DNA of 39,559 bases from a virus (taxonomy: Duplodnaviria; Heunggongvirae; Uroviricota; Caudoviricetes). Each line of letters starts with the position of its first letter. Position 1 is the stretch's first letter. The stretch lies in the IMG/VR virus record IMGVR_UViG_2565956762_000001, positions 1 to 39,559 of that record, one strand, 5' to 3'. Below the pieces are notes generated by a model, which saw only the letters and a list, made by a program, of their open reading frames with translations, did not search any database and was not told the origin of the DNA. Made by a program: the position numbers and the translations under genes. Positions 9,157 to 12,864 of the stretch are shown one piece after another.

Positions 9157-9807
9157 TTATGGAAGGTTTGCTAGTTTTGCATCGACAACTACGCCGATGA
9201 TTTTGCAGTTTCCGTTGATCTCGATCATCGGATATTGTGGGTTAAGTGGTTTTAGAAACTTCCTGCCTGCATCAATAACTAACTTCTTGAAAGTTGCCTC
9301 GTTTTCTCCTTCGAGCTTTGCAACTACCAGTTTCCCGTTACGCGGCTCTACTTCAGGATCGACGAGTATTATCATTCCTTCAGGGATACTGAGACCGGCC
9401 GGAGCCGTCATTGAGTCTCCCTTCACGTCCAACCAAAACGAATCTTCTGAACAGTCTACGGTTGTATCGTACCAGTTATCTATTGCACGCTTATGATATG
9501 GTTCTACAGCTTCCATCCAGCATCCTGCGCTCACCCAGCTAATCAGAGGGTATGACCCTCTTGGATCATGCCTACTGTGATAGGCAATGTTTGAAAGACT
9601 TTCCTCTCCTTTCATCAGATAGTCAGGGGAACACTTCAACGCATTAGCCAGGGCGAGAAGATTCTCTCCATTTGGCTCTGTCTCAGAGCGTTCCCACTGA
9701 GATATGGCAACATTAGACACGCCGACCATCTTTCCAAGTGCGGCCTGCCTGATCTTGAGTTCTTTTCTCCGAGCGCGAATGCGCTCTCCCATCAATTGAG
9801 TTTTCAT
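9157..9807 (-). CDS. cI: Prophage repressor, P22 C2 / phage-21 cI type (HTH + S24 LexA-like autopeptidase domain)
   Basis: 216-aa ORF MKTQLMGERIRARRKELKIRQAALGKMVGVSNVAISQWERSETEPNG… recognised as P22 C2-like; GDSM and VVAKL catalytic motifs present. Confidence 0.93.
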   Translation of the reverse strand: MKTQLMGERIRARRKELKIRQAALGKMVGVSNVAISQWERSETEPNGENLLALANALKCSPDYLMKGEESLSNIAYHSRHDPRGSYPLISWVSAGCWMEAVEPYHKRAIDNWYDTTVDCSEDSFWLDVKGDSMTAPAGLSIPEGMIILVDPEVEPRNGKLVVAKLEGENEATFKKLVIDAGRKFLKPLNPQYPMIEINGNCKIIGVVVDAKLANLP

Positions 9808-9873
9808 AGTTAAGACATCTTAAATAAACTTGACTTAAGATTCCTTTAGTGGATAATTTAAGTGTTCTTTAAT
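9808..9873. promoter_or_regulatory. OR3-OR2-OR1 operators with divergent PRM/PR
   Basis: Three 18-bp half-symmetric sites AGTTAAGACATCTTAAAT (9808..9825), ACTTAAGATTCCTTTAGT (9833..9850), ATTTAAGTGTTCTTTAAT (9856..9873); PR −35 TTGACT (9830..9835), 16-bp spacer, −10 GATAAT (9852..9857). Confidence 0.8.
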
Positions 9874-9887
9874 TTCGGAGCGAGTCT

Positions 9888-10073
9888 ATGTACAAGAAAG
9901 ATGTTATCGACCACTTCGGAACCCAGCGTGCTGTAGCTAAAGCGTTAGGCATTAGCGACGCAGCAGTCTCTCAGTGGAAGGAAGTCATCCCAGAGAAAGA
10001 CGCCTATCGACTGGAAGTCGTTACAGCTGGCGCCCTGAAGTATCAAGAAAGCGCTTACCGCAAAGCGGCATAA
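9888..10073 (+). CDS. cro: Cro (P22-type)
   Basis: 61-aa ORF MYKKDVIDHFGTQRAVAKALGISDAAVSQWKEV… recognised as P22 Cro-like; first gene downstream of PR. Confidence 0.93.
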   Translation: MYKKDVIDHFGTQRAVAKALGISDAAVSQWKEVIPEKDAYRLEVVTAGALKYQESAYRKAA

Positions 10074-10079
10074 GCAAAT

Positions 10080-10124
10080 TGCTCTTTAACAGTCATGGTC
10101 ATCATTCCCGCCGAAATGCGGGAA
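10080..10124 (+). promoter_or_regulatory. nutR (boxA + boxB hairpin)
   Basis: TGCTCTTTAA followed by hairpin TTCCCGC-CGAAAT-GCGGGAA; matches nutL. Confidence 0.6.
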
Positions 10125-10181
10125 TACAACGCGCATAATTTGATGCGCATAACTTCTTATTTGTTAAGGAAATACTTACAT

Positions 10182-10460
10182 ATGCAACTTACAAGTACTC
10201 GCAAGAAAGCGAATGCAATTACAAGCAACATCCTGAATCGAATTGCTGTACGTGGTCAGCGAAAGGTTGCCGACGCGTTAGGGATTAATGAATCGCAAAT
10301 TTCGAGATGGAAAGACAGCTTCATCCCAAAAATGGGAATGCTTCTGGCTGTTCTTGAATGGGGTGTTGAAGACGAGGAGTTGGCGGAACTGGCTAAGAAA
10401 GTAGCCAGAATGCTGACAAAAGAAAAAGCCCCGAAGAACGGCGAATTCTTCGAGGCCTGA
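10182..10460 (+). CDS. cII: CII-like transcriptional activator (P22 C1 type)
   Basis: Product from internal Met MQLTSTRKKANAITSNILNRIAVRGQRKVADALGINESQISRWK…; AAGGA RBS upstream; the upstream ORF extension covers nutR and is not coding. Confidence 0.8.
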   Translation: MQLTSTRKKANAITSNILNRIAVRGQRKVADALGINESQISRWKDSFIPKMGMLLAVLEWGVEDEELAELAKKVARMLTKEKAPKNGEFFEA

Positions 10461-10494
10461 TGTAGAAAGACTGGATCAATCCACAGGAGTAATT

Positions 10495-11139
10495 ATGACA
10501 TACGAAAATGACAAATTCCAGGTTCTGAAGAGCATGAAGGTGCCAGATGATTTTAAATCAAATGGCTTTGTTTATGTGCTTTCGAATGAGTGCATGCCAG
10601 GAATTTATAAGATTGGGATGACTAAGCATTCACCAGAAGTTAGGGCTAAAGAAATTTCAGCCTCTACTGGCGTTCCTAAGCCATTTAAGGTGATAGCAGC
10701 CTTTCATTCAAATAATCCCGCATCAGATGAAAAACTCATTCATAAAGCCTTTGCAAAAGAGAGGCTTAGTGATAATCGAGAGTTTTTCAAGCTTGAAGAT
10801 AATGATCTTTCTGAATCTCTAAATGAAATAAGGGCGCTGGTTGGCCCTGAAAGAAATGGCGAGACGGCAGAATACGCAATTTACGACTCATTCATTTCTT
10901 TTCGCCATGAAAATGAGCTTGATCTTAATGAGGAGCTTATAGAGCAAGGTCTGGGTAGTGTAGTTGGTCATCTTCCTGCGGTGAAAAATTTCCTTATTCG
11001 CGCCGGAATTGATTACGCGAAGCAACTGATAAGCAAATATAACTCATCGATAGTTATTAATACAGATGGCAGTGTGGTGATGGTTAAGTCTCTTGAAGCC
11101 CAATGCTTTGATGCGGAGGTTGGAAATGAGCCTGGCTGA
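10495..11139 (+). CDS. T5orf172-domain (GIY-YIG-like) protein inserted between cII and O
   Basis: 214-aa ORF with AGGAG RBS; N-terminal …GFVYVLSNECMPGIYKIGMTKHSPEVRAKEIS…REFFKL… fits the T5orf172/GIY-YIG-like pattern; 3' end overlaps the O start. Confidence 0.7.
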   Translation: MTYENDKFQVLKSMKVPDDFKSNGFVYVLSNECMPGIYKIGMTKHSPEVRAKEISASTGVPKPFKVIAAFHSNNPASDEKLIHKAFAKERLSDNREFFKLEDNDLSESLNEIRALVGPERNGETAEYAIYDSFISFRHENELDLNEELIEQGLGSVVGHLPAVKNFLIRAGIDYAKQLISKYNSSIVINTDGSVVMVKSLEAQCFDAEVGNEPG

Positions 11140-11968
11140 AGTATTTTACCTGCCGAAGAGTGAACCTGTTGAACAGGAGCGAAGAGTGGCTGATATCGAT
11201 GATGGTTACACCAGATTCGCTAACGAGCTGCTGGAAGCTATCGCAAGTGCCGATTTAACCGCTCGCCAGTTGAAAGTTATGCTGGCCTACGTCCGGAAAA
11301 CATATGGATTCAATAAGAAAACAGATCGAATAGCCGATGAGCAAATTGCTCAGTTAACAGGACTGTCAAGGCAGAATGTTAACAAGGCTAAAAAAGAACT
11401 GATTTCAATGAATTGCCTGTTTATGGATGGAAATCAAATCGGTGTAAATAGGGAGGTATCTGCGTGGCAATTCAGCAAGTGTCTCCAAGTTAGCAACTTT
11501 GTCTCGAAGTTAGAGACAAAAAGTGTCTCCAAATTAGAGACACTCAATGTCTCGAAGTTAGAGACACACAAAAGACATTCTTTAAAGACAAAAGAAAATA
11601 TTAATAAACCCCCTATATCCCCCAAAAAAGTTTCTCAGAAGTTCGACCCGCTAGAAACAGAGTTGCCTGATTGGTTATCAGCAGAAATATGGTTGTCGTG
11701 GGTTACCTATCGCAAGGAGATAGGTAAGTCGATCAAGTCTAAGCAAAGCGTCACTCAGGCTATCAACGTTCTAAGCAGAAGTCTGGAGAAGGGATATACA
11801 CCTGAAGAAATTATAAACCAGAGCATCGCCAGTGGTTGGCAGGGGATTTTTGAACCAAAGACTCCAAAGGGGAAATCTCAACCGAGGCCGCAGCAGCGAG
11901 CTATGCAGGAAAACTTTGCCGCCAAAGATTACGGGCAAACTGAAATGCCTTCATGGGCGCAGGAGTGA
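11126..11968 (+). CDS. O: Replication initiator, lambda O-like (contains ori iterons)
   Basis: Product from MSLAEVFYLPKSEPVEQ… with GGAGG RBS; iteron array inside the gene; followed immediately by the helicase-loader gene. Confidence 0.8.
   Translation: MSLAEVFYLPKSEPVEQERRVADIDDGYTRFANELLEAIASADLTARQLKVMLAYVRKTYGFNKKTDRIADEQIAQLTGLSRQNVNKAKKELISMNCLFMDGNQIGVNREVSAWQFSKCLQVSNFVSKLETKSVSKLETLNVSKLETHKRHSLKTKENINKPPISPKKVSQKFDPLETELPDWLSAEIWLSWVTYRKEIGKSIKSKQSVTQAINVLSRSLEKGYTPEEIINQSIASGWQGIFEPKTPKGKSQPRPQQRAMQENFAAKDYGQTEMPSWAQE
11481..11612. repeat. Replication origin: four iterons plus adjacent AT-rich segment
   Basis: Four ~17-bp dyad-symmetric repeats (gtctccaagttagcaac, gtctcgaagttagagac, gtctccaaattagagac, gtctcgaagttagagac) spaced about 23 bp, then an A/T-rich stretch. 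Confidence 0.75.
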
Positions 11969-11970
11969 AT

Positions 11971-12864
11971 ATGAATACGACAAATGGTTACAATCTGGCA
12001 CTGCAAAGGCAACTTGTAGACTCAAAAATCAATGACATTTCTGATCTGAAACAGAAACTTGAGTTTAGCAAAATTGGATCAGCATCAGATGGAATGTCAG
12101 TTACCAGCACAGTGGAAGAGTGCGAGAAACACGGTAAATATACTTCCTATGAGAAATATCTGACCATCTCAGGAAAAAGAATTACTTCAAGTAAATCTGA
12201 GTGCCCACAGTGCCTTGAGGAGAAAATTCGTAAGAAAGAGATTGAACGTGAGCAGGCAGAACAAAGAGCAAGACAATCAAAAATTGAATATTTGTTGAAT
12301 TCTCTCAATATTCCAGAGAGGTTCAAAAACTGCACTCTTCAGAATTATGAGCCTGTTAACGATGATGCAAAGCGAGTTCTTAAGGTATGCCAGGCATATG
12401 CCAGTAAGTGGCCTGAACGCCTTCAAAAAGGTGGCGGACTGGTCATGTGTGGTAAGCCTGGAACTGGAAAGAACCACCTTGCACTGGCTATCGCTAGGCA
12501 CGCCATTATCGAGCATCAAAGCTCTGTGATATTTACCACTGCGTTGAAAATTGCCAGAGAGTACAAATCAACATGGTCTAAGGCCGCAACCAGAACTGAA
12601 GAAGAAGTCATTAGGCAATTTACGCATCCTGACTTGTTAATAATCGATGAGGTTGGCGTGCAGTTCGGCAGTGATGCTGAAAAGCTAATCATGTTCGAAA
12701 TTATCAACACCAGATATGAATACATGAAGCCAACAATCCTGATTAGTAATCAGAGCAAAGATGAACTTTCGGCATTCATTGGTGAGCGTGTTATTGACAG
12801 GATGAATGATGGCGGCGGGTGCACCCTTGCGTTTACATGGGATAGTTACAGGAGCAGAACGTGA
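11971..12864 (+). CDS. DnaC/IstB-like AAA+ helicase loader (replication protein)
   Basis: Walker A GKPGTGKNHLA and Walker B LLIIDEVG; ATG 3 nt after the O stop with AGGAG RBS. Confidence 0.85.
   Translation: MNTTNGYNLALQRQLVDSKINDISDLKQKLEFSKIGSASDGMSVTSTVEECEKHGKYTSYEKYLTISGKRITSSKSECPQCLEEKIRKKEIEREQAEQRARQSKIEYLLNSLNIPERFKNCTLQNYEPVNDDAKRVLKVCQAYASKWPERLQKGGGLVMCGKPGTGKNHLALAIARHAIIEHQSSVIFTTALKIAREYKSTWSKAATRTEEEVIRQFTHPDLLIIDEVGVQFGSDAEKLIMFEIINTRYEYMKPTILISNQSKDELSAFIGERVIDRMNDGGGCTLAFTWDSYRSRT

Follow-up and report, generated by a model that had tools for sequence, protein, structure and literature searches.

A T5orf172/GIY-YIG gene cassette at the cII–O junction of lambdoid phages

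The junction between the cII-type gene and the replication initiator gene O in the P22/lambda-like phage DNA analysed here (the window, a whole stretch of 39,559 nucleotides) is occupied by a small cassette that some near-identical relatives carry and others lack. The cassette encodes a member of the T5orf172/GIY-YIG superfamily, predicted to be a two-domain protein kept by selection, in which a GIY-YIG nuclease domain is followed by a family-specific acidic C-terminal domain. The gene probably belongs to a known kind of selfish element, the homing nucleases, and a free-standing homing-type endonuclease is the best reading of the data, with a probability that we place at roughly 0.45. Most work on homing-type nuclease genes has concerned virulent phages, T4 and ICP1 among them. 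The loci described here provide clean filled and empty pairs with near-identical replication genes in the best-understood group of phages, the temperate lambdoid phages of E. coli.

Gene, cassette and operon setting

The features of the region are as follows (window coordinates, strand, description).

10182..10460, plus strand: cII-type activator gene, left neighbour (PF05269 Phage_CII, 3.5e-42; a longer ORF opens at 10095)
10426..10458, minus strand: oop-type antisense terminator inside the cII 3' end (14-bp stem, then a T run)
10470..10490, plus strand: lambdoid linker ACTGGATCAATCCACAGGAGT, 21 nt, left recombination flank, holding the AGGAG ribosome-binding site (RBS) at 10485-10489
10491..11170, plus strand: cassette-specific segment, 680 bp, in place of 52 bp of the empty allele
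10492..10500, minus strand: extended -10 (TGTCATAAT) of the oop promoter pO, kept; the -35 falls in replaced sequence
10495-11139, plus strand: predicted nuclease ORF, ATG start, 214 aa, T5orf172/GIY-YIG
10564..10830, plus strand: N-terminal predicted nuclease domain, residues 24-112 (GFVY 24-27, YKIG 38-41, R50, R95-E96-F97-F98)
10831..11136, plus strand: C-terminal family-specific acidic domain, residues 113-214 (pI 4.6, net charge -8)
11115..11119, plus strand: GGAGG Shine-Dalgarno sequence for O, within the 3' end of the nuclease gene (read from the sequence)
11126..11968, plus strand: replication initiator O (PF04492, 4.4e-36); codons 1-15 (11126-11170, MSLAEVFYLPKSEPV) are cassette-derived
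11480..11566, no strand assigned: four 19-nt ori iterons TGTCTC-N7-GAGACA inside O (repeat search, family D1)

Pfam and PHROGs searches identify the neighbours as a P22-type Cro (PF14549), cII, O and a DnaC/IstB-like loader. E. coli homologues of the cII-type gene are annotated as CII genes of 279-300 nt. The iterons are spaced by 20-24 nt, forming a lambda-style origin embedded within its own initiator gene.

The nuclease ORF begins 34 nt after the cII stop codon (10458-10460), and its ATG is preceded by the AGGAG motif at a distance of 5 nt. At the 3' end, the TGA stop codon (11137-11139) lies downstream of the O start, resulting in a 14-nt overlap. The first in-frame O start in the ORF listing is TTG 11093; ATG 11126 is taken as the real start on the basis of the annotated homologue in phage Bas106 and of the N-terminal alignment with phage N7. 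SD-like purine-rich sites (GGAGG, GAGG or a G run) are also found upstream of the initiator start in 6/6 related loci in which the nuclease gene overlaps this start (L027, L029, L005, L007, L009 and L028). A scan of positions 9700-12100 revealed no terminator-like site on the plus strand, and the only strong promoter-like site on this strand is PR (9830-9857); no promoter specific to the nuclease gene emerged from the same scan. The gene may therefore be regarded as an early lytic gene of the PR operon. A preliminary description of this DNA had reported the 214-aa ORF with its RBS, the 34-nt spacing, the overlap with O (here fixed at 14 nt, from ATG 11126) and a tight insertion in the operon with no flanking terminators, all of which hold.

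Filled and empty sites

Phage N7 carries the empty site. The window is 99.1% identical to N7 over positions 9800-10500 and 98.4% identical over 11171-11974, and 42 nt separate the two BLAST-aligned blocks in N7. The O gene of this phage uses the same RBS and ATGACA start; its O begins MTNTAKILNFGRGNF and is otherwise 98% identical. The filled site is found in phage Bas106 (CurroJimenez), the sole other carrier in the phage collection, where the gene is in the same place and 99.5% identical.

Of 5426 complete E. coli genomes, the gene is found in 19, in every case between a cII gene and a replication gene. The same O allele (>=98% identical) is found in 19 carriers and 25 non-carriers, and all 25 non-carriers lose similarity exactly at window position 11171. 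The gene is therefore not universal in this lineage, and the empty site that the preliminary description had proposed to look for at the cII–O junction does exist. Its boundaries, refined on 10 carrier and 7 non-carrier loci, map to 10491 and 11170 and are identical in all E. coli carriers.

The replaced 52 bp, identical in 7/7 non-carriers, correspond to the end of the O RBS spacer, the start codon of O and its first 15 codons. In carriers, the RBS and ATG that formerly served O are used by the nuclease gene, and O receives from the cassette a GGAGG, an ATG and 15 N-terminal codons that differ from the original ones. The GC content of the cassette is 0.403, compared with about 0.44 in the flanks. 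The window genome contains no copy of a 45-mer from the empty allele, and the conserved linker remains in it. The 21-nt linker is exact in the 18 fetched loci, both carriers and non-carriers, and is found behind at least four different cII modules.

Two candidate signatures of the cassette were rejected. The altered O N-terminus does not travel with the cassette across O families, as the O proteins of Gifsy-2, CUS-3 and a Klebsiella phage, which have no cassette, share the start motif M(S)NTAE/K-I with the carriers of those families; the N-terminus is foreign to the O body in the window lineage only. An A at -4 (10491) marks the cassette in the N7-type comparison, but the A variant of the linker is common, mostly before orf48-type genes.

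Carriers have at least five different cI/cro/cII immunity modules. Among 9 carriers and 7 non-carriers, 28 sites vary within the 804 nt of O on the right side of the cassette, and none shows a fixed difference between carriers and non-carriers. The O alleles of the two groups are interleaved by nearest neighbour; for instance, Bas106 is closest to a non-carrier. Nucleotide diversity (pi) in carriers and non-carriers, respectively, is 0.0033 and 0.0109 in the adjacent 270 nt (11171-11440), 0.0082 and 0.0060 at 11441-11710, and 0.0147 and 0.0148 at 11711-11974. Carrier diversity is thus about 3-fold lower in the 270 nt adjoining the cassette, in a small sample and in a pattern that ordinary recombination also gives. 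The interleaved O alleles and the local drop in pi suggest that the cassette moves from one O background to another and takes a short linked tract along; nuclease-stimulated conversion and ordinary homologous recombination would leave the same pattern.

In three carrier prophages (L013 4657-5567, L023 2401-3904 and L024 2401-3748), the O or DnaC-like gene is frameshifted or IS-interrupted, and the nuclease gene is intact.

Insertion of the cassette also affects the oop region. The empty allele of N7 features at the O start a minus-strand promoter-like sequence, TTGAGT-17-CATAAT with an upstream TG, together with an oop-type terminator identical to that of the window. The window keeps the terminator (10458 to 10426) and the extended -10 (10500 to 10492). 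The oop -35 element and the spacer lie in the sequence replaced by the cassette (window 10426-10530, minus strand; locus L001 1127-1221), and no promoter-like site passes the scan at the place of pO in the window. Loss of the -35 could change oop antisense control of cII and affect the lysis-lysogeny decision. The carrier Bas106 forms clear plaques on K-12, which its describers attribute to a missing attB (bioRxiv 10.1101/2024.09.12.612763). The cassette is compatible with lysogeny, since it is carried by 19 integrated prophages.

Protein domains, family and occupants of the slot

The N-terminal T5orf172 assignment proposed in the preliminary description is supported by Pfam matches far above the gathering scores, to PF13455 MUG113 (4.3e-16, residues 38-111, 59.7 bits versus a cut-off of 22.3) and PF10544 T5orf172 (2.3e-15, residues 24-112, 57.4 bits versus a cut-off of 20). 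In an alignment of 37 homologues, G24, Y27, Y38, G41, R50 and R95-E96-F97-F98, which map to the GIY, YIG, Arg and catalytic Glu positions, are invariant. An AlphaFold2 model based on the same 37 homologues has a mean pLDDT of 87, and the modelled nuclease domain has the GIY-YIG alpha/beta fold and matches SLX1 and I-TevI. Profile, motifs and fold concur in placing the protein in the T5orf172/GIY-YIG superfamily, and nuclease activity is predicted on these grounds. The name already in use in RefSeq is "GIY-YIG nuclease family protein", and T5orf172 proteins are called "Orf172 DNA-binding" in UniProt/BFVD. The NCBIfam search of the protein gave no match. PADLOC matches, obtained through the nuclease domain alone (PDC-S57, 6.4e-29; PD-Lambda-1, 8.5e-12), cover only residues 21-112. 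The PD-Lambda-1 match covers only profile positions 354-450 of about 491-496, and the best PDC-S57 model is matched only at positions 3-93 of 212, short of full length.

The C-terminal half, described earlier as unrecognised, is indeed so: residues 113-214 have no match in Pfam, and the sequence-profile search of the PDB with this domain also gave no match. In the BFVD viral predicted structures, matches are confined to the nuclease part, with none for the C-terminal domain. A phmmer search with this domain against 1.84 billion representatives retrieved only its own family and no other architecture, aside from spurious matches to two repetitive giant proteins. An Odn-like origin of the domain by copying from an initiator was rejected, as BLASTP comparisons with seven initiators and all window ORFs gave nothing below E = 0.6. 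Characterised GIY-YIG homing enzymes carry basic HTH or zinc-finger domains. No HTH, zinc finger or other recognisable DNA-binding module was found in the window protein, which is acidic as a whole, as is the entire family.

Both domains are under strong purifying selection (dN/dS 0.04-0.2), and the family is old, with saturated dS. Measured against an 83%-identical homologue (dS of about 1), the C-terminal domain (dN/dS 0.04) is more constrained than the nuclease domain (0.10).

We identified 52 homologues. Twenty-six are full-length (211-229 aa, 52-83% identity) and come from Klebsiella, Pectobacterium, Pantoea, Cronobacter and metagenome contigs. A larger sister subfamily of proteins of about 225-239 aa (35-47% identity) is found across Enterobacterales. 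In all nine distinct gene neighbourhoods examined, and in Salmonella phage S107, the gene is directly upstream of the replication initiator, the start of which it abuts or overlaps; the left neighbour is cII or YdaT. The initiators are of at least four types, namely O with a DnaC-like loader, O with lambda-P, the "MARSRNIKPGFF" type, and a primosomal/primase-helicase module.

In the sister subfamily, Phe is the last residue of 97/119 proteins, and the tips include DFDDAPF, DDSDIPF, DEPLPF, QLPVDF and QPVEF (proteins P0029-P0040 and P0057-P0165; loci L011 4001-4693 and L030 3001-3717). Recurrent tips in the same set read GIYGPxQPVEF, PQLPPVDEPLPF, PDFDDAPF and SDDSDIPF. These tips, which we take to resemble the SSB C-terminal tip or clamp-binding peptides, hint at a protein partner. 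The window protein has no Phe tip, as its tail overlaps the O start. One protein (P0032) that could be read as a fusion of the C-terminal domain to O (ENA contig L004, 3621-4609) was discarded: cI and the nuclease gene are also split on that contig, and a sequencing or assembly frameshift artefact is the most likely cause.

The slot between cII and the initiator serves as a junction for various modules and is not normally empty across the whole group. At 120 IMG/VR sites featuring the linker and AATTATG, 115 lead to small ORFs of 48-54 aa, of the P22 orf48 type, and 5 to the nuclease gene. Direct succession of cII and the initiator, previously stated for both lambda and P22, thus holds for lambda- and N7-type phages, while a small 48-54 aa ORF is usual in the P22 type. 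The small ORFs behind the linker CTGGATCAATCCACAGGAGTAATTATG (loci L035-L154) begin MTKRRKKYQ... or MTKQLSPYQ.... Salmonella phage S107 has a small orf48-type ORF plus the T5orf172 gene.

In phage Dewey (L003 833-1633), the same slot is filled by a gene encoding a 266-aa HNH endonuclease, in a similar RBS/AATTATG context. The Dewey gene is upstream of an initiator of the "MARSRNIKPGFF" type, which the T5orf172 subfamily precedes in loci L011 and L030.

Other genes were noted at or near this position. Klebsiella phage ST16-OXA48phi5.2 (L033 1-704) has in the slot a 266-aa "DNA-binding protein" gene, the stop codon of which overlaps the O start, and a KilAC-domain antirepressor is annotated beside O in Yersinia phages H213 and H214. 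Some carrier prophages have extra HNH endonuclease genes just past the replication genes, in the nin region (L014 6783-7394; L015 6770-7381 and 7867-8394), and nuclease genes appear to accumulate around the replication module.

Possible roles and comparison with known systems

As a free-standing homing-type endonuclease, the gene would be expressed from PR as an early lytic gene and translationally coupled to O, such that O expression would not be blocked. In a mixed infection, or upon infection of a lysogen, the enzyme would cut cassette-free lambdoid genomes at or near the conserved cII–O junction; the carrier genome itself lacks the 52-bp sequence of the empty allele. Recombinational repair would then copy the cassette, and a short flanking tract, from the carrier genome. 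Both the cleavage target and super-Mendelian spread are features that we infer, and the cleavage site is not derivable from sequence. The presence/absence polymorphism expected of a homing endonuclease gene is observed, and the preliminary suggestion of a homing-endonuclease-like gene is plausible in view of the empty sites and of the T5orf172 domain, which is catalytically intact by its motif residues, invariant in 37 homologues. Consistent with homing are also the sporadic distribution, with filled and empty alleles of fixed boundaries; carriage behind several immunity modules and lower diversity beside the cassette; the replacement of the empty-site 52 bp, with the 45-mer absent from the carrier genome; the lower GC content of the cassette (0.403 versus about 0.44); and the HNH gene in the same slot of Dewey. 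Moreover, T5orf172 genes have been described as homing-endonuclease genes located beside essential genes, including replication genes, at exchange boundaries (PMC10448857). The same suggestion is weakened by the acidity of the protein (C-terminal domain pI 4.6, net charge -8), in which no HTH or zinc finger was found, and by the nature of the junction, which accommodates orf48-type ORFs, an HNH gene and a gene for a 266-aa DNA-binding protein. Since the junction serves several modules, the filled/empty pattern could have arisen from ordinary homologous recombination between the linker and O, and the identical boundaries in all E. coli carriers fit a single origin. The age of the family, strong purifying selection in both domains, and the strict tie to initiators of at least four types look more like a functional link than a purely selfish element.

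This tie also speaks for a different account, in which the protein is a replication-linked accessory nuclease that would reach DNA through contacts of its acidic C-terminal domain with O, SSB, the clamp or the helicase loader, and would act on branched or replicating DNA, in fork or flap processing or in a rolling-circle or recombination-dependent switch. The constant location immediately upstream of the initiator in every context examined, though the initiators differ, the translational coupling to the initiator, the acidic and strongly constrained C-terminal domain, and the Phe tips of the sister subfamily (97/119), with their resemblance to SSB-tip or clamp-binding peptides, all point in this direction. 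Yet the gene is dispensable, being absent from 25/44 E. coli prophages with the same O and from phage N7, the window protein has no Phe tip, and the phage already encodes the recombination functions NinB and NinG. On balance we regard this account as unlikely. A further reading, in our view decidedly unlikely, is that the family is not a homing enzyme with a sequence target but a GIY-YIG nuclease that is directed to the replisome and has become fixed at the head of lambdoid replication modules. It would find its substrate through the contacts of the acidic domain, in the sister subfamily through the Phe tip, and may sabotage competitor or host forks or reshape the replication intermediates of the phage itself.

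The protein might alternatively be a domesticated conflict nuclease of lytic growth that destroys co-infecting or resident lambdoid phages or satellites, not necessarily copying itself, in a manner likened to ICP1 Odn or to marker exclusion; we consider this rather improbable. The nuclease domain matches PDC-S57 (6.4e-29) and PD-Lambda-1 (8.5e-12), PD-Lambda-1/SNIPE is a proven defence that cuts phage DNA (bioRxiv 10.1101/2025.11.03.685801), and in Odn a T5orf172 nuclease has been turned against the origin of a satellite (PMC8263062; PMC10448857). A sporadic accessory distribution under strong purifying selection and early expression from PR would also suit such a role. However, the defence models are matched by the nuclease domain of about 90 aa only, and the C-terminal domain is unlike O or any other window protein and occurs in no other architecture, which argues against a borrowed, Odn-like specificity domain. 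With regard to the defence gene proposed earlier, a form expressed in the lysogen is unlikely since no own promoter was found, and a lytic-growth nuclease acting on competitors is possible.

The other early proposal, a DNA-binding regulator, is very improbable. A non-catalytic DNA-binding or regulatory protein of the early operon would accord with the original annotation of T5orf172 as DNA-binding, with the "Orf172 DNA-binding" names in UniProt/BFVD and with the location of the gene among the regulators cro and cII. This is countered by the invariance, in 37 sequences, of all GIY-YIG motif residues, including the catalytic Glu in REFF, and by the acidity of a protein in which no HTH or other binding fold was found.

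Bas106 belongs to the BASEL collection and grows on K-12 with restored O-antigen (bioRxiv 10.1101/2024.09.12.612763). Its status as a carrier makes it practical to test directly whether the gene drives mosaic exchange at the classic cII–O boundary. If the protein works via the replication machinery, it would represent a new accessory function shared by the replication modules of many enterobacterial prophages. The acidic domain, still unexplained, and the connection with replication are also of value.

Several known systems share the catalytic domain. Structure-specific GIY-YIG nucleases of the SLX1/HIGLE group are 10-13% identical, with the likeness limited to the catalytic core, and differ from the window protein in having a RING/PHD domain and an SLX4 partner. 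PD-Lambda-1/SNIPE shares the T5orf172 domain and has in addition, ahead of this domain, DUF4041 and a membrane-associated N-terminal part, both lacking from the window protein. PDC-S57 models have a similar length (about 212-245 positions) and an N-terminal nuclease domain. Unlike both defence types, the window gene resides in a phage early lytic operon rather than in a bacterial defence island. ICP1 Odn (PMC8263062) is similar in its T5orf172 domain and association with replication, but carries a RepA_N domain copied from the initiator of its target, whereas the C-terminal domain of the window protein is unlike any initiator compared. The protein is not of the Odn, PD-Lambda-1/SNIPE or PDC-S57 type, as the second domains that define these types are not present.

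Like the T4 Seg proteins and I-TevI, the window protein features an N-terminal GIY-YIG catalytic domain followed by a second domain, and like the T4 Seg genes its gene lies as an insertion between genes, next to a conserved one; filled and empty alleles exist among relatives, and the junction is altered in carriers. T4 Seg proteins and I-TevI are basic, their DNA-binding modules can be identified and their cleavage sites have been mapped, and SegF of phage T4 performs "intronless homing". In contrast, neither such a module nor a cleavage site is detectable for the window protein.

The putative T5orf172 homing genes found in ICP1 and in other phages (Barth, Dunham and Seed 2023, PMC10448857) encode the same nuclease domain, PF10544, a GIY-YIG subfamily. 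[quoted passage not shown] Moreover, the window gene belongs to a temperate lambdoid phage, and overlaps and is translationally coupled to its essential neighbour. As with the ICP1-type genes, it is free-standing, lies beside an essential replication gene at an exchange boundary, and has relatives in which nucleases of another class (HNH) occupy the same locus.
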